Position numbers and translations under genes: made by a program. A stretch of DNA of 9,283 bases, taken from the IMG/VR virus record IMGVR_UViG_2534681766_000007, positions 1-9,283 of that record; one strand, given 5' to 3'. Below the pieces are notes generated by a model, which was not told where the DNA came from, did no database searches, and saw only the letters and a program-made list of their open reading frames with translations. Every line of letters starts with the position of its first letter. Positions within the stretch are counted from its first letter, which is position 1. The DNA comes from a virus (taxonomy: Duplodnaviria; Heunggongvirae; Uroviricota; Caudoviricetes). Positions 1 to 9,283 of this stretch are shown here, one piece after another.

Positions 1-1284
1 TTACTTCTTCGCCTCTGCAACCACTTTACTACCCACGCCGCGGTTATTGTATTCCCACATGCGGTTGTAGTTAGTGTCATTCAGATTGCGCTGTATTTCG
101 TCGTTATCATCTACGCTGCCGGTATTACCCGCAAACGGACGATTAGAGATCACCGCATCGGCCCACGGTTTAGCCGTGTTAAAACCTTCGTTGATGGCGC
201 TATCACGGATCACCACCTGACCGTTGGTATTGGCATCAACATCCAGCGAGCGGCCCAGTTGCGCCACACCATCACCGAAAGCATTGAAACGGCTGTTTAC
301 GGCGAGGAAACCGTAGTAAATGTTGGACAGCGTAGCCGGTGCAAACACATACGCTTCTTGCTGAGTACGTGAGTTCACCACGCGGAATTCGGTGTTATCG
401 AACACCACTGCGCCGCGACCAGAAACGATATCCACATCCCCTTCAATGTAGCTGTTGGTCACCAGCGTACGCGGCTGACGATTCGTTTCCAGACGGTTCT
501 GCACACCGCTGTTGGTGACAAAGAAGGTGTTCTGACGACCGAGAATGTTAACGTTGTTAATCTGTACCTGGTCACCATCAGTACGCAGTGCCACCGCCGG
601 ATGGTTACCTGCATCTACGCTATCGCCCAGCGTGTTTTCGATGGTCAGATTTTGCAGTTGCAGGCCATTGTTTTGTGACCAGAAGACCGCAGAGCAGAGA
701 ACACCGATACTGTCGCTGCGTTTGCTCTGGCAGCTATCGTACATATACCACGCTGGTTTACCTGGCATATATTTGCCGCGCGGGTTGACGTCGTGACGCC
801 AGTCGGCAGGGCTCATGCCACCATCAAGGGAAAGCCCAATCTTCACATCAATCGGTTTTTCACCTGTACCGTACAGAGTAATTCCACCCGGAGCGGCAGG
901 GACATATACCGTTCCCTGATACTCACCAGGCATCACGGCAATATACTGGCGCTTGTTGGTACGCTTGATAATTGCCGCATCTACCGCCGCCTGAATCGTG
1001 GTATGCGTTACACCTTGAGTGCCCGCCGGGCCGACAACAAAGTCAGGTTGCGCAGGCAGGGTAATCGGGGAAGGATTCCACGCTGCTGCACCTGGTGTCA
1101 GGGATGCAAAATAGTGTTGAGCATCGAAATTCTGCGCTTCTTTTGCCGACAGAATCGGGCGAGAAGAGGTACCAGGCGCGGTTTGATCAGAAGGACGTTG
1201 ATCGGGCGGGGTTGAGCTACAGGCGGTCAGCGTCACGCCAAAAGCCAATGCCAGCGCCAGACGGGAAACTGAAAATGTGTTCAC
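1..1284 (-). CDS. ybhC: YbhC-like outer-membrane lipoprotein (pectinesterase / acyl-CoA thioesterase family); host gene flanking attB-lambda
   Basis: Complete 427-aa ORF on minus strand; stop TAA at 1-3, GTG start at 1282-1284 with GGAG about 8 nt upstream. N-terminus MNTFSVSRLALALAFGVTLTAC has a signal peptide plus lipobox (LTAC). Sequence recognised as E. coli YbhC from memory. G+C-rich relative to the prophage cargo. Confidence 0.9.
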   Translation of the reverse strand: MNTFSVSRLALALAFGVTLTACSSTPPDQRPSDQTAPGTSSRPILSAKEAQNFDAQHYFASLTPGAAAWNPSPITLPAQPDFVVGPAGTQGVTHTTIQAAVDAAIIKRTNKRQYIAVMPGEYQGTVYVPAAPGGITLYGTGEKPIDVKIGLSLDGGMSPADWRHDVNPRGKYMPGKPAWYMYDSCQSKRSDSIGVLCSAVFWSQNNGLQLQNLTIENTLGDSVDAGNHPAVALRTDGDQVQINNVNILGRQNTFFVTNSGVQNRLETNRQPRTLVTNSYIEGDVDIVSGRGAVVFDNTEFRVVNSRTQQEAYVFAPATLSNIYYGFLAVNSRFNAFGDGVAQLGRSLDVDANTNGQVVIRDSAINEGFNTAKPWADAVISNRPFAGNTGSVDDNDEIQRNLNDTNYNRMWEYNNRGVGSKVVAEAKK

Positions 1285-1330
1285 AGGTTGCTCCGGGCTA
1301 TGAAATAGAAAAATGAATCCGTTGAAGCCT

Positions 1331-1345
1331 GCTTTTTTATACTAA
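1331..1345. other. attL: phage lambda att common core (GCTTTTTTATACTAA) in attL (B-O-P') configuration
   Basis: Exact 15-bp lambda core at 1331-1345. Flanks read CTGCTTTTTTATACTAAGTTG, i.e. bacterial B arm on the ybhC side and phage P' arm on the int side. Core lies 47 bp upstream of the ybhC start. Confidence 0.9.
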
Positions 1346-1418
1346 GTTGGCATTATAAAAAAGCATTGCTTATCAATTTATTGCAACGAACAGGTCACTA
1401 TCAGTCAAAATAAAATCA
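1346..1418. promoter_or_regulatory. attP P' arm: IHF H'-type site and tandem Int arm-type binding sites
   Basis: TATCAATTTATTG at 1371-1383 fits the IHF consensus WATCAANNNNTTR. Tandem arm-type-like repeats AGGTCACTAT (1392-1401) and CAGTCAAAAT (1402-1411), with a third AAATCATTAT-like copy next to the int stop. Arrangement matches the lambda P' arm as I remember it. Confidence 0.7.
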
Positions 1419-2489
1419 TTATTTGATTTCAATTTTGTCCCACTCCCTGCCTCTGTCATCACGATACTGTGATGCCATGGTGTCCGACTTATGCCCGAGA
1501 AGATGTTGAGCAAACTTATCGCTTATCTGCTTCTCATAGAGTCTTGCAGACAAACTGCGCAACTCGTGAAAGGTAGGCGGATCCCCTTCGAAGGAAAGAC
1601 CTGATGCTTTTCGTGCGCGCATAAAATACCTTGATACTGTGCCGGATGAAAGCGGTTCACGACGAGTAGATGCAATTATGGTTTCTCCGCCAAGAATCTC
1701 TTTGCATTTATCAAGTGTTTCCTTCATTGATATCCCGAGAGCATCAACATGCAATGTTGTTGGGATGGCAATTTTTACGCCTGTTTTGCTTTGCTCGACA
1801 TAAAGATATCCATCTACGATATCAGACCACTTCATTTCGCATAAATCACCAACTCGTTGCCCGGTAACAACAGCCAGTTCCATTGCAAGTCTGAGCCAAC
1901 ATGGTGATGATTCTGCTGCTTGATAAATTTTCAGGTATTCGTCAGCCGTAAGTCTTGATCTCCTTACCTCTGATTTTGCTGCGCGAGTGGCAGCGACAGG
2001 GGTTGTTGTTATATGGCCTTCAGCTATTGCCTCTCGGAATGCATCGCTCAGTGTTGATCTGATTAACTTGGCTGACGCCGCCTTGCCCTCGTCTATGTAT
2101 CCATTGAGCATTGCCGCAATTTCTTTTGTGGTGATGTCTTCAAGTGGAGCATCAGGCAGACCCCTCCTTATTGCTTTAATTTTGCTCATGTAATTTATGA
2201 GTGTCTTCTGCTTGATTCCTCTGCTGGCCAGGATTTTTTCGTAGCGATCAAGCCATGAATGTAACGTAACGGAATTATCACTGTTGATTCTCGCTGTCAG
2301 AGGCTTGTGTTTGTGTCCTGAAAATAACTCAATGTTGGCCTGTATGGCTTCAGTGATTGCAATTCGCCTGTCTCTGCCTAATCCAAACTCTTTACCCGTC
2401 CTTGGGTCCCTGTAGCAGTAATATCCATTGTTTCTTATATAAAGGTTAGGGGGTAAATCCCGGCGCTCATGACTTCGCCTTCTTCCCAT
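1419..2489 (-). CDS. int: tyrosine site-specific integrase, phage lambda Int type (356 aa)
   Basis: Full-length ORF starting MGRRRSHERRDLPPNLYIRNNGYYCYRDPRTGKEFGLGRDRR and ending HLLGHKSDTMASQYRDDRGREWDKIEIK; recognised as essentially lambda Int (catalytic C-terminal domain present). ATG at 2487-2489, stop at 1419-1421, 74 bp from the att core as in lambda. Confidence 0.96.
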   Translation of the reverse strand: MGRRRSHERRDLPPNLYIRNNGYYCYRDPRTGKEFGLGRDRRIAITEAIQANIELFSGHKHKPLTARINSDNSVTLHSWLDRYEKILASRGIKQKTLINYMSKIKAIRRGLPDAPLEDITTKEIAAMLNGYIDEGKAASAKLIRSTLSDAFREAIAEGHITTTPVAATRAAKSEVRRSRLTADEYLKIYQAAESSPCWLRLAMELAVVTGQRVGDLCEMKWSDIVDGYLYVEQSKTGVKIAIPTTLHVDALGISMKETLDKCKEILGGETIIASTRREPLSSGTVSRYFMRARKASGLSFEGDPPTFHELRSLSARLYEKQISDKFAQHLLGHKSDTMASQYRDDRGREWDKIEIK

Positions 2490-2685
2490 TTCTGATCCTC
2501 TTCAAAAGGCTACCTGTTACTGGTCGATTTAAGTCAACCTTTACCGCTGATTCGTGGAACAGATACTCTCTTCCATCCTTAACCGGAGGAGGGAATATCC
2601 TGCACTCGCGTACCCATCGACGAACTGTTTCAAGGCTTCTTGGGCGTCGCTGGCGTGCGTTCCACTCCTGAAGTGTCAAGTACAT
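2467..2685 (-). CDS. xis: excisionase Xis (72 aa), lambda type
   Basis: ORF MYLTLQEWNARQRRPRSLETVRRWVRECRIFPPPVKDGREYLFHESAVKVDLNRPVTGSLLKRIRNGKKAKS recognised as lambda Xis. Its 3' end overlaps the int start by 23 bp (2467-2489), the known lambda arrangement. Confidence 0.95.
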   Translation of the reverse strand: MYLTLQEWNARQRRPRSLETVRRWVRECRIFPPPVKDGREYLFHESAVKVDLNRPVTGSLLKRIRNGKKAKS

Positions 2686-2752
2686 CGCAAAGTCTCCGCA
2701 ATTACACGCAAGAAAAAACCGCCATCAGGCGGCTTGGTGTTCTTTCAGTTCT

Positions 2753-2881
2753 TCAATTCGAATATTGGTTACGTCTGCATGTGCTATATGCGCCCACAGC
2801 ATCCAGTGGTCTGATGTTCTCGGCTTCGATAACTCTGTTGAATGGTTCTCCATTCCATTCACCTGTGACTCGGAAGTGCAT
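2753..2881 (-). CDS. hypothetical 42-codon ORF downstream of xis in the leftward operon (uncertain)
   Basis: ATG at 2879-2881 preceded by a strong SD (GGAGATGATAA then ATG on the minus strand); translates MHFRVTGEWNGEPFNRVIEAENIRPLDAVGAYSTCRRNQYSN. The ORF track instead lists an overlapping 82-aa ORF in another frame (2725-2973), so the frame assignment is unresolved. Confidence 0.25.
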   Translation of the reverse strand: MHFRVTGEWNGEPFNRVIEAENIRPLDAVGAYSTCRRNQYSN

Positions 2882-2931
2882 TTATCATCTCCATAAAACA
2901 AAACCCGCCGTAGCGAGTTCAGATAAAAGAA

Positions 2932-2951
2932 ATCCTCGTCAGTGCGAGGAT
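2932..2951 (-). terminator. hairpin (7-bp stem ATCCTCG / CGAGGAT, 6-nt loop) followed on the minus strand by TTCTTTTATCTG; possible intrinsic terminator or RNA structure at the left edge of the substitution cassette
   Basis: Inverted repeat read directly from sequence; T-rich run follows on the minus strand. It lies where similarity to lambda, as I recall it, ends. Confidence 0.3.
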
Positions 2952-3123
2952 GCTGTTCATTGCTGCTATACACTTTTTTGCTCTCAACGTAAGCGGTAGC
3001 CCATTCTGTTGGGTTGGTGCAGTTGCTTTTAGGAAATGCTATTTACCCCTTAAATGTCGGCTGAAAGAGCTAAAATCCATGCAAAAAATTTACGCAATTT
3101 TGTGTATTATTGTGCAGTAAGTA

Positions 3124-3726
3124 ATGAGCTATTTTCTGCGCAAAAAATGGATGGTAAATTTGTCCGGGTCAGGAAAAATTTTATGGGCGCTAAACATGAA
3201 AAAAGATTCGTATCCTTATTTGATTTGCATGACAGTTTCAGGGCTGATCTTTATTTTCCTTTTCTTCTGGTGGCGGGCAGATATCTACAGGGTCACGTTT
3301 CTTAATCAGAGTATATCCCACTATTACATTCTGTTTAGCATGGGAATAGCTTTTCTGTTATCTCTGTTTTGGGTTAAGAAGGGGATAGTAAAACAAAGAG
3401 GCTGGAAGAGTCTGTCAGCATACCTTAAGGTTTATGCAGGGATGTGCATATTTGCTGGATTTTTTCTGATTATACCCCTTACGACACTAACTTATTTTTT
3501 GCCTGGAGAGACATCGTCTTATGTTGCACCGTATCGGTATACTTCCGGTAGTTCAAAAAGTTGTTCTGGAGCTGAGGTGGATGACCCCGATCTACATGAG
3601 AATATTCGCATTTGCTATCCGTATGGCAATTATGAGTACGATAATATTATCTATGTTGAAAAGAAAATTAATATATTAGGTGCGGTAGTGACATATGCAC
3701 AGACCGCGCGTGATGATACTGAATGA
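3124..3726 (+). CDS. hypothetical membrane protein, three predicted TM helices plus ~75-aa Cys-containing C-terminal domain (predicted periplasmic); AT-rich accessory (moron) gene, candidate superinfection-exclusion or defence factor
   Basis: 200-codon ORF on the opposite strand to the surrounding lambda early-left genes. Hydrophobic segments YPYLICMTVSGLIFIFLFFWW, HYYILFSMGIAFLLSLFWV and YLKVYAGMCIFAGFFLIIPLTTLTYFL; the TM2-TM3 loop is K/R-rich (KKGIVKQRGWK), consistent with N-in/C-out topology. Start is ambiguous (ATG 3124 or 3196, both with weak SD). A 60-nt sample (3301-3360) has 20 G+C, versus 26 of 60 in an int sample. No recognisable family. Confidence 0.6.
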   Translation: MSYFLRKKWMVNLSGSGKILWALNMKKDSYPYLICMTVSGLIFIFLFFWWRADIYRVTFLNQSISHYYILFSMGIAFLLSLFWVKKGIVKQRGWKSLSAYLKVYAGMCIFAGFFLIIPLTTLTYFLPGETSSYVAPYRYTSGSSKSCSGAEVDDPDLHENIRICYPYGNYEYDNIIYVEKKINILGAVVTYAQTARDDTE

Positions 3727-3760
3727 TATAGTATATAGCGGGCAAGTTTTAGTTAATTTA

Positions 3761-3784
3761 TCGAGGTAATATAATTTACCTCGA
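3761..3784 (+). terminator. hairpin TCGAGGTAA-TATAAT-TTACCTCGA downstream of the membrane-protein gene; putative terminator
   Basis: Perfect 9-bp inverted repeat with 6-nt loop, 35 bp after the stop at 3724-3726, followed by CTCGTTTGTTCTGG (moderately T-rich). Confidence 0.4.
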
Positions 3785-3936
3785 CTCGTTTGTTCTGGTA
3801 TTAATATTTCGCTTTACGACCGATTTTTATCTGATGATATCATGCGGTTTTCATATACTGACTTACTGTCTTTTCTCCGTTAGCGATTTTCTCCTGCTCA
3901 GCGATGATTTTATCTTTGGCTTCTAGTTAATTTCGC

Positions 3937-4158
3937 TCACTTCGAACCTCTCTGTTTACTGATAAGCTCCAGATCTTGCTGGCAACTGGCACAAGTCCGA
4001 CAACCCTGAACGGCCAGTCGTCTTCGTTCATCTATCGGATCGCCACACTCACAACAATGAGTGGCAGATATAGCCTGGTGGTTCAGGCGGCGCATTTTTA
4101 TTGCTGTGTTGCGCTGTAATTCTTCAATTTCTGATGCTGAATCAATTATGTCTGCCAT
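3937..4158 (-). CDS. TraR/DksA-family C4-type zinc-finger protein (lambda Orf73-like), 73 aa
   Basis: ORF MADIIDSASEIEELQRNTAIKMRRLNHQAISATHCCECGDPIDERRRLAVQGCRTCASCQQDLELISKQRGSK contains the CxxC...CxxC motif of the TraR/DksA zinc-finger family; ATG at 4156-4158. Size and position match the lambda TraR homologue as I recall it. Confidence 0.85.
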   Translation of the reverse strand: MADIIDSASEIEELQRNTAIKMRRLNHQAISATHCCECGDPIDERRRLAVQGCRTCASCQQDLELISKQRGSK

Positions 4159-4204
4159 CTTTCATTAATCCCTGAATTGTTGGTTAATACGCTTGAGGGT
4201 GAAT

Positions 4205-4234
4205 GCGAATAATAAAAAAGGAGCCTGTAGCTCC
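4205..4234 (-). terminator. intrinsic-terminator-like hairpin (GGAGC-loop-GCTCC) followed by a T-tract on the minus strand
   Basis: On the minus strand the sequence reads GGAGCTACAGGCTCC then TTTTTTATTATT; located between the stop of the upstream ORF (4257) and the Orf73 start (4158). Confidence 0.45.
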
Positions 4235-4256
4235 CTGATGATTTTGCTTTTCATGT

Positions 4257-4538
4257 TCACCGTTCCTTAAAGACGCCGTTCAACATGCCGATCGCCAGGC
4301 TTAAATGAGTCGGTGTGAATCCCATCAGCGTTACCGTTTCGCGGTGCTTCTTTAGTACGCTACGGCAAATGTCATCGACGTTTTTATCCGGAAACTGCTG
4401 TCTGGCTTTTTTGATTTCAGAATTAGCCTGACGGGCAATGCTGCGAAGGGCGTTTTCTTGCTGAGGTGTCATTGAACAAGCCCCATGTCGGCAAGCATAA
4501 GCACACAGAATATGAAGCCCGCTGCCAGAAAAATGCAT
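4257..4538 (-). CDS. small early-left protein (lambda orf61-region homologue); start uncertain, alternative start at 4472 gives 71 aa beginning MTPQQENALRSIARQ
   Basis: Open frame in the ORF track (93 aa). The ATG at 4538 lies immediately after an in-frame TGA, so the N-terminus may be an ORF-finder artefact; the ATG at 4470-4472 overlaps the stop of a 27-codon ORF in ATGA configuration. Confidence 0.45.
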   Translation of the reverse strand: MHFSGSGLHILCAYACRHGACSMTPQQENALRSIARQANSEIKKARQQFPDKNVDDICRSVLKKHRETVTLMGFTPTHLSLAIGMLNGVFKER

Positions 4539-4548
4539 TCAGTGGTTG

Positions 4549-4740
4549 TCATACCTGGTCTCTCTCATCTGCTTCTGCTTTCGCCACCATCATTTCCAGC
4601 TTTTGTGAAAGGGATGCGGCTAACGTATGAAATTCTTCGTCTGTTTCTACTGGTATTGGCACAAACCTGACTCCAATTTGAGCGAGGCTATGTGCCATCT
4701 CGATACTCGTTCTTAACTCAACGGGAGATGCTTTGTGCAT
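4549..4740 (-). CDS. small early-left protein (lambda Orf63-like), 63 aa
   Basis: ORF MHKASPVELRTSIEMAHSLAQIGVRFVPIPVETDEEFHTLAASLSQKLEMMVAKAEADERDQV; ATG at 4738-4740 preceded by a good SD (GGGGAG, 4-nt spacer); length and position match lambda orf63. Confidence 0.7.
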   Translation of the reverse strand: MHKASPVELRTSIEMAHSLAQIGVRFVPIPVETDEEFHTLAASLSQKLEMMVAKAEADERDQV

Positions 4741-4868
4741 ACAGCTCCCCGTTTATTATTTATCTCCTCAGCCAGCCGCTGGGCTTTCAGCGGATTTCGG
4801 ATAACAGAAAGGCCGGGAAATCCCCAGCCTCGCTTTGTAACGGAGTAGACGAAAGTGATCGCGCCTAA
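4713..4868 (-). pseudogene. 5'-truncated orf60a-like gene; N-terminal coding sequence lost at a deletion joint
   Basis: C-terminal 52 codons (GAITFVYSVTKRGWGFPGLSVIRNPLKAQRLAEEINNKRGAVCTKHLPLS) match lambda Orf60a as I recall it and overlap orf63 by 28 bp as in lambda. Upstream of about 4868 the frame runs into antisense tail-fibre sequence. Confidence 0.5.
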
Positions 4869-6229
4869 TGGATGAAACGAACAAGAAAGCGCCCTTAAAT
4901 AGTCCTGCACTGACCGGAACGCCAACAACGCCAACTGCGCCAAAAGGTACTAATAATACTCAGATCGCAAGTACGGCTTATGTGATGGCCGCGATTGCCG
5001 CCCTTGTAGACTCGTCGCCTGACGCACTGAATACGCTGAACGAGTTAGCGGCGGCGCTGGGCAACGACCCGAATTTTGCGACCACCATGACTAACGCGCT
5101 TGCGGGTAAGCAACCGAAAGATGCCACCCTGACGGCGCTGGCCGGGCTTGCTACTGCGGCAGACAGGTTTCCGTATTTTACGGGGAATGATGTCGCCAGC
5201 CTGGCAACCCTGACAAAAGTCGGGCGGGATATTCTTGCGAAATCGACCGTTGCTGCCGTTATCGAATACCTCGGTTTACAGGAAACGGTAAATCAGGCTT
5301 CTGGCGCATTACAGAAAAACCAGAACGGCGCAGATATTCCGGGAAAAGATACCTTCACCAAAAACATTGGTGCCTGCCGCGCATATAGCGCATGGCTGAA
5401 TATTGGTGGCGATAGTCAGGTCTGGACAACTGCGCAATTTATTTCGTGGCTGGAGAGTCAGGGGGCATTTAACCATCCTTACTGGATGTGCAAAGGCTCA
5501 TGGGCTTATGCAAATAATAAGGTTATTACAGATACAGGTTGCGGAAATATTTGTCTTGCAGGTGCTGTGGTGGAAGTTATTGGCACTCGCGGCGCAATGA
5601 CCATACGCGTTACTACGCCGAGCACGTCCAGCGGTGGCGGAATTACTAACGCTCAATTCACTTATATTAATCATGGTGATGCTTACGCTCCTGGCTGGCG
5701 ACGAGACTACAACACGAAAAACCAGCAGCCTGCATTTGCTTTAGGGCAAACAGGACGCAGGGTCGCAAATGATAAAGCTGTTGGCTGGAACTGGAATAGC
5801 GGTGTTTATGATGCAGATATCAGTGGTGCATCGACATTAATCCTCCACTTCAATATGAATGCGGGGAGTTGCCCTGCTGTACAGTTCCGCGTGAATTACA
5901 GGAACGGCGGTATTTTTTATCGTTCAGCGCGTGATGGTTATGGCTTTGAAGCTAACTGGTCAGAGTTTTACACCACAACACGCAAACCCTCTGCGGGGGA
6001 TGTTGGTGCATATACGCAGGCAGAATGTAACTCAAGGTTTATTACAGGTATTCGCCTTGGCGGTCTGTCATCTGTTCAGACATGGAAAGGCCCCGGCTGG
6101 TCTGACAGGTCAGGTTATGTCGTTACGGGTTCAGTTAACGGAAACCGTGATGAATTAATTGATACAACTCAGGCAAGGCCAATTCAGTATTGCATTAATG
6201 GGACGTGGTATAACGCGGGGAGTATTTAA
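4868..6229 (+). CDS. side tail-fibre protein, C-terminal portion (5'-truncated at deletion joint): constant region to about 5284 plus variable domain Sv
   Basis: 453-aa ORF containing the conserved Stf stretch KAPLNSPALTGTPT...IASTAYVMAAIAALVDSSPDALNTLNELAAALGNDPNFATTMTNALAGKQPKDATLTALAGLATAADRFPYFTGNDVASLATLTKVGRDILAKSTVAAVIEYLGLQETVN, which normally sits in the C-terminal third of lambdoid side tail fibres. No SD before the in-frame ATG at 4868; the N-terminal part of the gene is absent. Confidence 0.85.
   Translation: MDETNKKAPLNSPALTGTPTTPTAPKGTNNTQIASTAYVMAAIAALVDSSPDALNTLNELAAALGNDPNFATTMTNALAGKQPKDATLTALAGLATAADRFPYFTGNDVASLATLTKVGRDILAKSTVAAVIEYLGLQETVNQASGALQKNQNGADIPGKDTFTKNIGACRAYSAWLNIGGDSQVWTTAQFISWLESQGAFNHPYWMCKGSWAYANNKVITDTGCGNICLAGAVVEVIGTRGAMTIRVTTPSTSSGGGITNAQFTYINHGDAYAPGWRRDYNTKNQQPAFALGQTGRRVANDKAVGWNWNSGVYDADISGASTLILHFNMNAGSCPAVQFRVNYRNGGIFYRSARDGYGFEANWSEFYTTTRKPSAGDVGAYTQAECNSRFITGIRLGGLSSVQTWKGPGWSDRSGYVVTGSVNGNRDELIDTTQARPIQYCINGTWYNAGSI
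5259..5284. repeat. 26-bp Gin/Pin/Hin/Cin-type crossover site, left end of invertible segment (TTATCGAATACCTCGGTTTACAGGAA)
   Basis: Close to the Mu gix site as I recall it (TTATCCAAAACCTCGGTTTACAGGAA). Inner 25 bp (5268-5292, ACCTCGGTTTACAGGAAACGGTAAA) is a perfect inverted repeat of 8304-8328. Lies inside the tail-fibre reading frame at the constant/variable boundary (EYLGLQETVN). Confidence 0.85.
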
Positions 6230-6231
6230 CG

Positions 6232-6765
6232 ATGATGCACTTAAAAAACATTACTGCTGGCAACCCTAAAACAAAAGAGCAATACCAGCTAACAAAGCAA
6301 TTTAACATCAAATGGCTTTATTCAGATGATGGAAAAAACTGGTATGAGGAACAAAAGAATTTCCAGCCAGACACTTTGAAAATGGTCTATGACCATAACG
6401 GCGTTATTATTTGTATTGAAAAGGATGTTTCAGCAATTAATCCAGAGGGTGCAAGCGTCGTTGAATTACCTGATATTACAGCAAATCGCCGGGCTGATAT
6501 TTCGGGGAAATGGATGTTCAAAGATGGCGTAGTGATAAAGCGAACTTATACCGAGGAAGAGCAGAGGCAACAAGCGGAAAATGAAAAGCAAAGCCTGTTG
6601 CAACTTGTCAGGGATAAAACCCAGCTATGGGACTCACAGCTACGGCTGGGCATCATTTCCGACGAGAATAAACAAAAATTAACCGAGTGGATGCTCTATG
6701 CGCAGAAAGTCGAATCTACAGACACTTCTGGCCTGCCAGTAACGTTTCCCGAACAACCAGAATGA
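6232..6765 (+). CDS. tfa: tail-fibre assembly protein (Tfa / U-type chaperone), 177 aa
   Basis: Starts 2 bp after the tail-fibre stop (TAACGATG). N-terminus [24 protein letters not shown] and overall length typical of Tfa; paralogous to the oppositely oriented ORF at 6794-7321. Confidence 0.85.
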   Translation: MMHLKNITAGNPKTKEQYQLTKQFNIKWLYSDDGKNWYEEQKNFQPDTLKMVYDHNGVIICIEKDVSAINPEGASVVELPDITANRRADISGKWMFKDGVVIKRTYTEEEQRQQAENEKQSLLQLVRDKTQLWDSQLRLGIISDENKQKLTEWMLYAQKVESTDTSGLPVTFPEQPE

Positions 6766-6769
6766 GAGA

Positions 6770-6793
6770 AGGCCCGCTATCGGGCCTTAATTT
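6770..6793. terminator. bidirectional intrinsic terminator between convergent tfa genes (AGGCCCG-CTAT-CGGGCCT followed by TAATTTTT)
   Basis: GC-rich 7-bp stem with 4-nt loop and a T-run on the plus strand; sits between the tfa stop (6763-6765) and the tfa' stop (6794-6796). Confidence 0.55.
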
Positions 6794-7321
6794 TTACTCT
6801 GGTTTTTGTGGCCATTCAGGATTTGCCGTATCCACACGGCTGACCAGAACACTGTAGCGTTCCCATGCTTCCAGTCGTGTGCGTTCCTCGTCTGTTGCCA
6901 TATTCAGCCTGACAGCGCGTTCCAGCGGTTGGATGACTGATTCAGCTTCGGAAAGCAATGCGGCCTTTTGTGATTCGGCCTGTTGTTGTTGCTCGTCTGC
7001 CGTATAAATCCGTTTAACCACAGCTCCGTCCCTAAACATCCACTTACCGGAATCATCAGCGCGGCGGTTGGCTGTAATATCTGGAACCTCAACGACGCTA
7101 TAACCTTCAGGGTTAAGCGTGGAGGCATCTTTGGTGATGGCGACAATAATATTATTTGCATCGTAAACAATCTTTATTGTGTCTGGCTGAAAGTTTTTCA
7201 CTTCCTCATACCAGTTTTTTCCGTCTTCGGACCATAACCAGATAACATCAAAATTCTTTGTTAGCTGATATTGTTCTTTTGTTTTTGGTTTTCCAGACTT
7301 AATATTTTTTAAATGCTGCAT
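6794..7321 (-). CDS. tfa: alternate tail-fibre assembly protein (Tfa' / U'), 175 aa
   Basis: N-terminus [24 protein letters not shown] is paralogous to the plus-strand Tfa, with a divergent C-terminal half; start ATG at 7319-7321, 3 bp after the Sv' stop. Confidence 0.85.
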
Positions 7322-7324
7322 AAA

Positions 7325-8323
7325 TTACACCTGTACGACGTTATACCATGTGCCATTGATGTATTTTTGTATTGGTCTGAATACTGCCGGATCATCGCCA
7401 TCAACTGCACCGATAATGCCAAGCCCCGTAATTGCATGACCTGATTTCTCATACATCACGCCTTTTTGCATAGTCTGAACAACACGTGTACCAAGTCGGA
7501 CATCTCTCACATAACGTGGGTCAAAATTACCATAATTGCCGGGAATAACTTGCGCACCGCAAAGCCAGTTGCCATTGTTGTCCATGTACGCCTGACCATC
7601 GGTGCCATTGGCTGTCCTTGAGTTATTAATCATGTAGATGCCAAATTGCTTATTCCCCAGTCCACCAATCATAAATTTGCGATCAGCGTGGTCCTGACGA
7701 AGTAATGCCTGCGCACCATCGGTGGATACCGCATTGCGTCCCAAAATAACATTCTGGTCACGCATATGAATCCACATGCCGGTACTACTGTTAATTGCAA
7801 AACGGTTTGCAAATATATCCCCTGTAACATCAAGACCATGCCCCATGCTTATCCGACCAGTTCTGAGATTAAGCGTAAAGGGGCGTAGTGGCCCTATATC
7901 ACCATTTTCTCCCTCATTCTCTCGTGTAGGGATGATATGCAGGCATTCTTCAGAGCGACGAAAAATAGCACCAAAAGATGAATTAAATATCCTCAGTGCA
8001 TTGACTGTCGATATTTTTACTTCACTGCTGAAAAGGGCTTTAACAAGGACAGACAAAGCATCCCATTTAAGAGTCATCAGGTCTTTTGTTGTGGTGCTCT
8101 GGCGGCTTCTCCATTTGAAATATTCATTGCCGTTGTCGCCTGTTTCAAACCACATGTATGAATCAGTGTCGCTGTCGGCATTATTTTTAAAACCAATCTT
8201 TGCCCAGTCAGTATTTCTAATCCAGGCAAGGATTGAGTCGTTTTCAAAAGTAAGCCCACCGGACAAGGTATCGCCATTCTTTTGCACGGCGTTCCTGGCC
8301 CTGTTTACCGTTTCCTGTAAACC
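7325..8323 (-). CDS. alternate tail-fibre variable C-terminal domain (Sv'); no start of its own, expressed only when inversion joins it to the constant region
   Basis: Reading from the right crossover site on the minus strand gives ...YLGLQETVNRARNAVQKNGDTLSGGLTFENDSILAW..., in frame with the constant-region motif and continuing to a stop at 7325-7327. Ends ...FRPIQKYINGTWYNVVQV, parallel to the Sv ending ...RPIQYCINGTWYNAGSI. Confidence 0.8.
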   Translation of the reverse strand, partial: GLQETVNRARNAVQKNGDTLSGGLTFENDSILAWIRNTDWAKIGFKNNADSDTDSYMWFETGDNGNEYFKWRSRQSTTTKDLMTLKWDALSVLVKALFSSEVKISTVNALRIFNSSFGAIFRRSEECLHIIPTRENEGENGDIGPLRPFTLNLRTGRISMGHGLDVTGDIFANRFAINSSTGMWIHMRDQNVILGRNAVSTDGAQALLRQDHADRKFMIGGLGNKQFGIYMINNSRTANGTDGQAYMDNNGNWLCGAQVIPGNYGNFDPRYVRDVRLGTRVVQTMQKGVMYEKSGHAITGLGIIGAVDGDDPAVFRPIQKYINGTWYNVVQV

Positions 8324-8337
8324 GAGGTTTTAGATAA
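8312..8337. repeat. 26-bp Gin/Pin/Hin/Cin-type crossover site, right end of invertible segment (TTCCTGTAAACCGAGGTTTTAGATAA)
   Basis: One mismatch to the Mu gixL sequence as I recall it (TTCCTGTAAACCGAGGTTTTGGATAA); inverted with respect to the site at 5259-5284. Confidence 0.85.
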
Positions 8338-8391
8338 TGGCGGTTTCTGGCCTGCATGGCATGATTTGTGCTTTTGGACGGGAGATTCAGC

Positions 8392-8625
8392 GTGCTGATT
8401 GGCTATGTAAGGGTATCAACAAATGACCAGAATACAGACCTGCAACGAAACGCTCTTGTTTGTGCAGGATGTGAACAAATATTTGAAGATAAATTAAGCG
8501 GAATAAGGACAGGCCGACCTGGATTAAAACGTGCTTTAAAGCGCCTTCAAAAAGGTGACGCACTGGTTGTCTGGAAACTGGACTGACTGGGTCACTGTAT
8601 GCGGCATCTTGTCGTGCTGGTGGTG
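8392..8625 (+). pseudogene. pin: serine DNA invertase (Pin/Gin/Hin/Cin family) remnant: N-terminal catalytic fragment interrupted by in-frame TGA after codon 64, then 3'-truncated
   Basis: GTG at 8392 with GGAG 7 nt upstream; translation VLIGYVRVSTNDQNTDLQRNALVCAGCEQIFEDKLSGIRTGRPGLKRALKRLQKGDALVVWKLD carries the invertase active-site serine context (VRVSTNDQ). TGA at 8584-8586 where family members have an Arg codon (DRLGRS), a few more invertase-like codons (MRHLVVLV), then unrelated sequence. The helix-turn-helix DNA-binding C-terminus is absent. Confidence 0.85.
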
Positions 8626-8718
8626 GAAGCCTGGAAAAAGTATCGGGGGTTGCTGAACCGTGTTGATACATCAACTGCACCGGATATTGAATGGCCAACA
8701 GGACCCATTATCGAATAG
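8626..8718 (+). pseudogene. 3'-terminal fragment of a tail-fibre assembly (tfa) gene fused in frame to the pin remnant
   Basis: Translation [30 protein letters not shown] then stop (TAG 8716-8718). This matches the Tfa C-terminal pattern seen in both tfa genes of this window (...[26 protein letters not shown] and ...LTEWMLYAQKVESTDTSGLPVTFPEQPE) and the lambda Tfa C-terminus as I recall it. Confidence 0.6.
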
Positions 8719-8729
8719 TGCATTACGAA

Positions 8730-8762
8730 CTGCAGGATATTATATGGGATAATATTCTGCAG
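8730..8762. terminator. 13-bp stem hairpin (CTGCAGGATATTA / TAATATTCTGCAG, one G-U pair) followed by TTTATT; putative bidirectional terminator between the convergent pin/tfa remnant and the GGDEF gene
   Basis: Inverted repeat read directly from sequence at 8730-8742 and 8750-8762 with a 7-nt loop; 30 bp upstream of the GGDEF gene stop (8792-8794) on the opposite strand. Confidence 0.4.
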
Positions 8763-8791
8763 TTTATTGGGGCTGTATTTTAAAAAGGTGT

Positions 8792-9283
8792 TTATTTTGA
8801 GTGAGTTATCACCTTGTTTTTTCCGGTTCTTTTGGCTTGATATAACGCTTTATCGGCATTGACTAACATTTCAGATGGACTGAGATTATTCTCTTTTGAA
8901 GTAAAGCAACCAATACTGACAGTTATTTTCTCAGGTCCATGCGATAATAATTTTTCCGAGCATTGCTCTTCAATGTTTTTTCTGATTCGCTCTGCAATTG
9001 ATAGCAAGAGCTTTTGAGTATTACCTTTAATGATAATACCGAACTCCTCACCGCCTAAGCGCCCTAATATATCCTCTTTCCTGATGGATTTTTTTATTAT
9101 TCTGGTAACCATTACTATGACTTGATCACCCATATGATGCCCCCATTTGTCATTGATGCTTTTGAAATTGTCAATATCTAACATTATTACTGAGAAATCA
9201 TGGTGTTTTGATATATTCTTCAATGAGTCAATAAAGTATCTTCTATTGTATGTATTCGTTAGTGGATCATGAATTGCCATATG
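8792..9283 (-). CDS. GGDEF-domain diguanylate cyclase, C-terminal catalytic domain (5' end of gene lies beyond the window)
   Basis: Frame contains the GGDEF-domain start motif DPLTNTYNRRYF, the active-site motif GGEEF (LGRLGGEEFGIII) and an RxxD I-site (RKED) five residues upstream of it. The frame is open to the window edge, so the listed Met is probably internal. AT-rich: 20 G+C in the 60 nt 8881-8940. Confidence 0.8.
   Translation of the reverse strand, partial: HMAIHDPLTNTYNRRYFIDSLKNISKHHDFSVIMLDIDNFKSINDKWGHHMGDQVIVMVTRIIKKSIRKEDILGRLGGEEFGIIIKGNTQKLLLSIAERIRKNIEEQCSEKLLSHGPEKITVSIGCFTSKENNLSPSEMLVNADKALYQAKRTGKNKVITHSK

Follow-up and report, generated by a model that had tools for sequence, protein, structure and literature searches.

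Few proteins are known to block phage DNA entry. SieA of phage P22 (162–164 residues) is an inner-membrane protein with three predicted transmembrane (TM) helices that is expressed from its own promoter and blocks DNA injection, interfering with the ejection-protein conduit (PMC10461980). We analyzed a 9,283-nucleotide stretch of DNA, positions 1–9,283 of IMG/VR record IMGVR_UViG_2534681766_000007 (hereafter the window), which carries part of a lambda-type prophage, and within it a gene at 3196–3726 on the plus strand for a protein of 176 amino acids (aa). This protein is predicted to combine three TM helices with a small periplasmic β-barrel, and it may be a blocker of phage DNA entry. It is likened to SieA by its similar size, its three predicted TM helices and its occurrence as a solo prophage gene; expression from the prophage is known for SieA and is proposed here. 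The two proteins differ in that no homology can be detected between them, in the 74-residue disulfide-type periplasmic β-barrel modelled here, and in genome position.

Three further comparisons are useful. HK97 gp15 is cited in PMC10461980 as a moron-encoded, small predicted inner-membrane protein that blocks genome entry and is T4 Imm-like. It shares with the present gene the likely format of a promoter-gene-terminator moron in a lambdoid prophage and a small predicted inner-membrane product, but no PHROG or PADLOC match connects the two proteins, which are otherwise likened by description. HK97 gp15 is also the smaller protein and is located among tail genes. The interval between portal gpQ and replication gpA of P2-like prophages is an anti-phage hotspot that holds old/tin in P2 (Rousset et al. 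2022, PMC9122126). Homologues of the present gene fill exactly this slot, although the gene is unrelated to Old, Tin and the validated systems in PADLOC searches. SieB of lambda and P22 and RexB of lambda are, like the protein described here, membrane proteins encoded opposite to or independently of the early operon in lambdoid prophages; they act in abortive infection, whereas the pattern of conservation in the present protein speaks for a binding domain in the periplasm, and there is no homology to P22 SieB.

The gene, its module and the predicted protein

Comparison with lambda by BLASTN gives two collinear blocks, window 1331–2951 matching lambda 27724–29355 (97.8% identity) and window 3925–4867 matching lambda 30380–31323 (97.0% identity). 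Since the first stops at 2951 and the second resumes at 3925, the intervening 973 bp replace the 1024 bp of lambda 29356–30379, which according to the lambda annotation comprise ea8.5 and, apart from its first 16 nt, the whole of ea22. An earlier reading of the window from its letters only (the sequence-only reading) had described an AT-rich swap of about 1 kb for ea8.5/ea22 at 2955–3925. This is borne out: the BLASTN edges are nearly exact and lie within three bases of those coordinates, G+C over 2955–3925 is 38.0% (int 45%, xis 49%, orf73 47%), and the 20 G+C positions that had been counted in 3301–3360 are exact. The features of the segment on which the argument rests are the following.

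2952–3924: replacement segment, 973 bp, 38% G+C (BLASTN against lambda, lambda annotation, composition)
3059–3816 (+): module of upstream region, open reading frame (ORF) and hairpin, 76.5% DNA identity with the copy in a P2-like prophage (BLASTN against L026, NZ_CP027388; search hits H74/H75)
3090–3116 (+): three direct repeats with a 10-bp period, TTACGCA / TTGTGTA / TTGTGCA (alignment A4; 434 annotation)
3124–3195 (+): non-conserved 24-codon extension, probably untranslated (ATG 3124 is ATC in the P2-type copy; homologues start at M25)
3132–3160 (+): putative promoter, with a weak −35 TTTTCT (3132–3137), a 17-bp spacer to the hexamer and an extended −10 TGgTAAATT (3152–3160) (alignment A4)
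3196–3726 (+): conserved coding sequence (CDS), 176 aa and stop (alignments A1/A2; ratio of nonsynonymous to synonymous substitution, dN/dS, 0.09–0.17)
3761–3784 (+): terminator-like hairpin inside the shared module (terminator scan, folding, BLASTN)

The ORF called mechanically has 200 codons (3124–3726, +) and runs opposite to the early-left operon, as the sequence-only reading had it, but its start lies 24 codons too early. The aligned homologues of 42–78% identity all carry the start motif MKK(D/Y)SYP at M25, three of the rows having longer called N-termini, and ATG 3124 is lost in the nearest diverged (P2-type) copy; the CDS is therefore 3196–3726. Full-length relatives below ~90% identity measure 169–186 aa. 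Nei–Gojobori pairwise dN/dS is 0.12 between the window and the E. coli P2-type copy, 0.09 and 0.17 between the window and two Salmonella types, and 0.11–0.16 among the E. coli P2-type and Salmonella copies, values that mark a coding sequence held by purifying selection. Across genera, and in nearly all clusters, the frame has stayed intact. Judged by these ratios, the gene is real and selectively maintained.

Other gene models for the region were considered and set aside. Many database entries are short (81–128 aa), and the PHROG family phrog_1416 has 90 aa; a natural short isoform with a single TM segment (the 90-aa phrog_1416, 112-aa entries) was dropped, the one case checked (P0082/L043) being a miscalled start in a full 173-codon ORF that begins with GTG. 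A 56-aa ORF at 2950–3120, annotated in one 434 record, is probably spurious: it has no family match, lies mostly outside the shared module and is absent from the RefSeq annotation. The ORF-22+ start at 3183 in M60848 is in a different frame from the conserved protein.

The DNA shared with the P2-like prophage begins 137 bp before the start codon, ends 90 bp after the stop and takes in the hairpin. A shared span made up of upstream region, gene and terminator is the classical moron format, and the module is absent from lambda, present in phages 434, mEp332 and 2B8, and poorer in G+C (38%) than its flanks (45–49%). Window 3059–3816 is thus likely a moron: an accessory gene, self-contained in that a likely promoter and a terminator-like hairpin come with it. 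The position of the extended −10 is kept in seven of nine diverged upstream regions (alignment A4); a consensus promoter scan made no call at 3132–3160. If this promoter is used, transcription would start near 3167, downstream of the non-conserved ATG 3124, and the gene may be expressed from its own promoter in the lysogen. The hairpin terminator attributed to the ORF by the sequence-only reading is real as a hairpin (9-bp stem, −12.9 kcal/mol, z = −2.8), but the tail that follows is only moderately T-rich, so that it is terminator-like rather than a textbook terminator.

Hydropathy places three hydrophobic segments at ~31–50, 65–85 and 105–126 of the 200-aa ORF. The loop between the second and third holds six K/R, and the C-terminal 74 residues carry a net charge of about −5 together with C147 and C164 (200-aa numbering). 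AlphaFold2 was run on a 25-sequence alignment, with residues in 176-aa numbering, and gave a model with a predicted local distance difference test (pLDDT) of 87.6 and a predicted template-modelling score (pTM) of 0.73, in which helices span 5–29, 38–61 and 70–101, loop 1 forms a strand and five strands fall within 105–171. Modelled alone, the C-terminal domain reaches a pLDDT of 91. The predicted parts are as follows.

3208–3282 (+): TM helix 1, residues 5–29 (AlphaFold2 model; hydropathy)
3283–3306 (+): conserved periplasmic loop IYRVTFLN, whose short strand (E34–36) packs on the C-terminal domain in the model (I, T and L invariant; R and F near-invariant)
3307–3378 (+): TM helix 2 (hydropathy; AlphaFold2)
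3379–3402 (+): K/R-rich cytoplasmic loop, KKGIVKQRGWK... (charge count; positive-inside rule)
3403–3498 (+): TM helix 3, residues 70–101 (hydropathy; AlphaFold2)
3502–3723 (+): periplasmic C-terminal domain, a small five-stranded β-barrel and the most conserved part, with invariant CSGA, ICYPxGxY and two cysteines

Positively charged residues of membrane proteins tend to remain inside (the positive-inside rule). With the short N-terminus MKKD, this rule places the N-terminus and the TM2–TM3 loop in the cytoplasm and the TM1–TM2 loop and C-terminal domain in the periplasm. Topology and fold are predicted with high confidence, and inner-membrane localization is a prediction too. The architecture that had been read from the letters survives in each part: hydropathy and AlphaFold2 agree on three hydrophobic helices, the K/R-rich TM2–TM3 loop is again predicted cytoplasmic, the domain of about 75 residues with two cysteines is predicted periplasmic from its charge distribution and modelled as an outward-facing five-stranded β-barrel, the protein has no catalytic motif, and profile searches yield no known family.

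Invariant and near-invariant residues cluster in the loop IYRVTFLN and in the C-terminal domain (LPG, Y.Y, SCSGA.V, P.L, I.IC.P.G.Y, EK..N.LG.VV), whereas in TM2 and TM3 only the hydrophobic character is conserved. This distribution argues for a site of action in the periplasm rather than for a cytoplasmic sensor, and suggests that the working part is periplasmic and that the helices serve as its anchor. Both invariant cysteines (C123 and C140 in 176-aa numbering) sit at the base of the β2–β3 hairpin of the model, which is compatible with a disulfide between them.

Searches of Pfam, NCBIfam and PADLOC returned nothing above threshold for the window protein or for the 25 aligned members, and a profile search of PDB sequences found no match; with the predicted viral structures of BFVD included, no known family, housekeeping or other, could be assigned. 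Comparison with DUF1093/YxeA-like and other small OB/SH3-like β-barrels gave scores under the level that would support homology, at ~10% identity and with no shared known function. Searching 5.8 billion proteins brought up 74 relatives, and among 1.84 billion cluster representatives an exhaustive HMM search recovered just 57 proteins, every one of the same size class or a fragment. As far as their named sources tell, the family is small and confined to Enterobacterales. Literature searches by accession, phage name and topic found no functional study of the gene. The protein had been called uncharacterized and undescribed, which is right insofar as it has no functional study or described family; the gene was, though, already in databases, in phage 434.

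Occurrence among prophages and association with Ea22-like genes

Of 5426 complete E. coli genomes, 906 contain the 1.1-kb region at a coverage of ≥80%; the flanks of the ORF55–orf73 slot are carried by roughly 2900 E. coli genomes. In a set of 50,697 phage records the region is confined to 434 (98.5% identity), mEp332 and 2B8. The 434 copy (OL657226, CPT_434_36) is labelled "putative membrane protein", and the 434 int-xis sequence M60848 includes a fragment of the region.

Every homologue of 50–78% identity, whether from E. coli, Salmonella, Klebsiella or a metagenome, lies between gpQ and gpA of a P2-like prophage; the window copy itself belongs to a lambdoid prophage and not to the P2-like hotspot. 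The hotspot survey names WP_000711113, the E. coli P2-type homologue, in its Table S5 as "hypothetical" and does not have it among the systems cloned and tested (Rousset et al. 2022, PMC9122126).

Two P2-like prophages that are otherwise 97% identical show what the module displaces: L027 has an intact ead/Ea22-like gene, and in L026 the module replaces the last 258 bp, leaving an ea22 pseudogene without its C-terminus. The pair mirrors lambda, with ea22 intact, against 434 and the window, where the module is present and a stub of ea22 remains. Three traces at the edges of the segment bear on this history.

3923–3940 (−): residual start of a lambda-type ea22, GTG-S-E-I-N-stop (GTG AGC GAA ATT AAC TAG) (sequence; lambda homology resumes at 3925)
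3882–3926 (−): possible, weak remnant of the coiled-coil part of a P2-prophage-type Ea22-like gene, LEAKDKIIAEQEKIA (tblastn E = 0.02; 44-bp BLASTN match at 77%)
2956–2997 (−): possible, weak and degenerate ea8.5-like remnant of 14 codons, TAYVESKKVYSSNE, against Ea8.5 residues 43–56 (tblastn E = 0.04, 1.1-kb search space)

The first is the five-codon stub at the right edge that had been pointed out before, and it is present as described, reading from 3940 to 3923. The 45 nt adjoining it, LEAKDKIIAEQEKIA, resemble residues 84–98 of the P2-type Ea22-like protein, a weak match in a tiny search space. In addition, 59 bp on the left side of the module, at 3059–3117, match the flank of a module-less P2-like prophage (BLASTN). 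The simplest history suggested by these sequences is that the module replaced the 3' part of an Ea22-like gene and that the block was later swapped between phage types by recombination in Ea22-like sequence. That the same module has twice replaced an Ea22-like 3' end, in lambdoid and in P2-like backbones, makes it a concrete case of accessory-gene exchange between unrelated temperate phages. A transposon-like cassette was rejected, no terminal direct or inverted repeats of the segment being found, as was an RNA element in the non-coding parts, which have no Rfam match.

Two of the recovered loci call for separate comment. In a Klebsiella P2-like hotspot (L022–L024, 2281–5623), the homologue shares the interval with a 790-aa AAA_16 protein and a 279-aa protein on the opposite strand, which probably form a separate two-gene defence system. 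A 3.5-kb contig in a Saccharibacteria bin, from a "Candidatus Nanosynbacter" metagenome-assembled genome (JARKOR010000073.1, L032), encodes a protein 100% identical to that of the window and almost certainly got into the bin as contamination from E. coli or a prophage.

Possible functions

The predicted membrane-anchored periplasmic domain, the likely autonomous antisense unit in slots known for exclusion genes and the analogy with SieA lead us to rank first a block of DNA entry, exerted by a prophage-expressed protein at the periplasmic face of the inner membrane; we propose it tentatively, as a reading that falls somewhat short of probable. Under this proposal the 176-aa inner-membrane protein would be made in the lysogen from a gene antisense to the pL operon of a lambda/434-type prophage, and its three TM helices would anchor a disulfide-bonded β-barrel and the conserved short loop on the periplasmic face. 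Superinfecting phages would be stopped at the DNA-entry step from the periplasmic side of the membrane. The target could be the incoming conduit formed by tail-tip, tape-measure or ejection proteins, or an inner-membrane host factor that the conduit needs; such a mode of action has been proposed for P22 SieA and HK97 gp15. For the broader notion of an anti-phage function as a whole, which we infer, the homologues in the gpQ–gpA defence hotspot give real though indirect support, and the module recurs in accessory slots of two unrelated temperate-phage types.

It is rather doubtful that the gene is, beyond this, the founding member of a new superinfection-exclusion family. Such a family would pair a three-TM anchor with a disulfide-locked periplasmic mini β-barrel, would be swapped by lambdoid and P2-like prophages as a promoter-gene-terminator unit in Ea22-like genes, would have become fixed in some Enterobacterales chromosomes, and would act by a mechanism unrelated to those of SieA, Imm, gp15 and Cor.

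Several observations weigh against a role in exclusion. In PADLOC-DB v2 the window protein has no match at E ≤ 1, and 25 family members give two noise hits at E ~0.4; in PHROGs the sole return is phrog_1416, a family of unknown function; and Foldseek against BFVD finds nothing at E < 0.001. Aligned with hhalign, profile A2 reaches a probability of 0.1% against P22 SieA, with no common PHROG, and of 0.25% against P22 SieB, and kinship with SieA or SieB was rejected on these values below 1%. The ribosome-binding site before M25 is poor in the window. The P2 hotspot also carries cargo other than defence genes, namely ParM/StbA partition genes and Ea22-like genes. Finally, homologues of 35–56% identity sit in chromosomes and megaplasmids with no phage genes nearby, and such stable copies outside any prophage context weaken a defence or exclusion reading.

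This last point is the main argument for the most serious competitor, an envelope protein of lysogenic conversion or host fitness that is not aimed at phages and was captured from an enterobacterial chromosome, with, for example, a part in an inner-membrane or periplasmic process, in stress tolerance or in resistance to an external agent. We regard this as unlikely, though clearly to be reckoned with: the stable chromosomal clade fits a general envelope function at least as well as it fits exclusion. The most divergent clade is chromosomal and keeps its synteny across Enterobacter species, the Enterobacter cloacae complex among them, beside a GGDEF gene and an AI-2E transporter gene. Pantoea megaplasmids contribute 25 records with a homologue, small chromosomal islets are found in Cedecea, Citrobacter, Klebsiella and Serratia, and further copies without nearby phage genes occur in Erwinia, Phytobacter and Kosakonia. 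The want of a match to any known defence family in PADLOC points the same way. On the other side, the phage-borne clade occupies slots known for exclusion genes, and single-gene defences are also common in chromosomes. Nor do the surroundings indicate a cellular pathway by a constant neighbour or operon: the copies of Klebsiella and Enterobacter sp. 10-1 adjoin a LysR gene and a bgl-type phosphotransferase system (PTS) gene, that of Serratia lies directly downstream of ptsG, and no neighbour is constant among the chromosomal and megaplasmid loci compared.

Among these neighbourhoods, the adjacency to PTS permeases (ptsG in Serratia, L030 3333–5510; a divergent bglF-type gene in Klebsiella, L009 3882–6543) could be a lead, since siphophage DNA entry uses PtsG and ManYZ as inner-membrane factors. 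As a general link it is a weak post hoc lead only, and it is not general across 11 further genomes. The Serratia marcescens "plasmid" pE28_003 carries mltG-tmk-holB-ptsG and looks chromosomal rather than plasmid. In Pantoea coffeiphila (L034 8538–9125) and Erwinia sp. (L035 8538–9128), the homologue is followed, 27 nt downstream, by a same-strand ORF of ~195 aa that has no match in Pfam and may be a partner specific to the lineage.

It is improbable that the protein is a membrane effector of abortive infection in the manner of SieB or RexB, killing or depolarizing the cell once infection is sensed. Like sieB in P22, it is a solo gene for a membrane protein in the early region, read from the strand opposite pL, and TM proteins are often suicide effectors (Rousset et al. 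2022, PMC9122126). Yet the protein has no cytoplasmic domain able to sense infection and no partner sensor gene, its conservation lies in the periplasmic domain and not in the poorly conserved TM helices, and the hhalign comparison with SieB gives no sign of kinship. More improbable still is an orphan immunity protein against a toxin of the periplasm or inner membrane (a colicin, a contact-dependent inhibition toxin or a type VI effector), for which it can be said that the anchor would place a small binding domain where such a toxin arrives.

A part in the development of the phage itself, in the lysis-lysogeny decision or the timing of lysis, as successor to the replaced ea8.5/ea22, is very improbable. 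It finds some favour in the site, which belongs to the exo-xis region, whose genes influence lysogenization and induction (PMC7093339, PMC3824215), and in the 434 record, which marks the middle pair of the repeats at 3090–3116 as a CII-site pattern. These repeats are kept upstream of the E. coli P2-type copy and of two Salmonella copies. However, the gene is antisense to the early operon and occurs in P2-like prophages and chromosomes without lambda-type circuitry; the TTGY-N6-TTGY pattern is not enriched in the window (five found, 2.8 expected), and the E. coli P2-type copy has a broken second half-site (alignment A4). The CII-activated promoter of the 434 annotation was therefore not adopted, its pattern being at chance level and imperfect in that copy. 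Decay to a functionless remnant, which the many short database entries and the weak ribosome-binding site might suggest, is excluded for practical purposes by the selection signal, the frame kept intact across genera and the tracing of the one checked short form to a miscalled start.

The gene is found in the textbook phage 434 and in about one-sixth of complete E. coli genomes, including O104:H4 outbreak strains. Should it be an exclusion factor, the few known blockers of phage DNA entry would be joined by a structurally new type that acts in the periplasm, with consequences for the prediction of host range and the design of phage therapy in E. coli, Salmonella and Klebsiella; should its role be in the cellular envelope, the chromosomal copies of Enterobacter and Pantoea would allow it to be studied free of phage. 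Four traits set it modestly apart from the many hypothetical morons: its prevalence, a structure that is confidently predicted yet unmatched, the recurrence of the ea22 association in two phage lineages, and the existence of relatives in chromosomes.

Remainder of the window

The left part of the window is chromosomal ybhC (1–1284, minus strand), after which the lambda-type prophage begins at the lambda attachment site. The genes and signals flanking the replacement segment are listed below.

1419–2489 (leftward): int
2467–2685 (leftward): xis
2725–2892 (leftward): 55-codon ORF (ORF55)
2932–2951 (−): leftward terminator hairpin at the left edge of the segment, t-L4 in the 434 int-xis record (terminator scan; M60848 feature 2292–2322 mapped to the window)
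3937–4158 (leftward): orf73, TraR/DksA-type
4257–4538 (leftward): phrog_303 ORF
4549–4740 (leftward): orf63/DUF1382

The CII-binding repeat of lambda pI, TTGCGTGTAATTGC, is intact upstream of xis and int (2698–2711, minus strand), so the int-xis control region of the prophage remnant looks unimpaired. Phage 434 has an extra 437 bp with ORF114 between xis and ORF55 (L001 2367–2802), which are absent from the window (2713–2716) and from lambda.

Homology to lambda stops at 4867 within orf60a (lambda 31323), and a tail-fibre gene begins at 4868; the stretch between exo and the tail genes, which makes up nearly all of the prophage, is thus missing. The 4867/4868 junction is found in none of the 5426 complete E. 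coli genomes (none cover it at ≥80%); each side is common alone, and the right side is intact in 63 genomes. The junction (4741–4868) stems from a deletion or rearrangement specific to the strain, or else from an assembly join.

Beyond it lies an invertible tail-fibre segment (4868–8350), in which a 453-aa fibre gene and tfa (6232–6765, plus strand) face an inverted tfa (6794–7321, minus strand) and an alternative fibre C-terminus (7325–8287, minus strand), beside a Pin-type invertase gene. The invertase gene (8368–8700) has an in-frame stop after 72 codons (WKLD*), and recombinase sequence is recognizable briefly beyond, so that it looks like a pseudogene. It is followed by a gene for a GGDEF-domain protein (8792–9280, minus strand).

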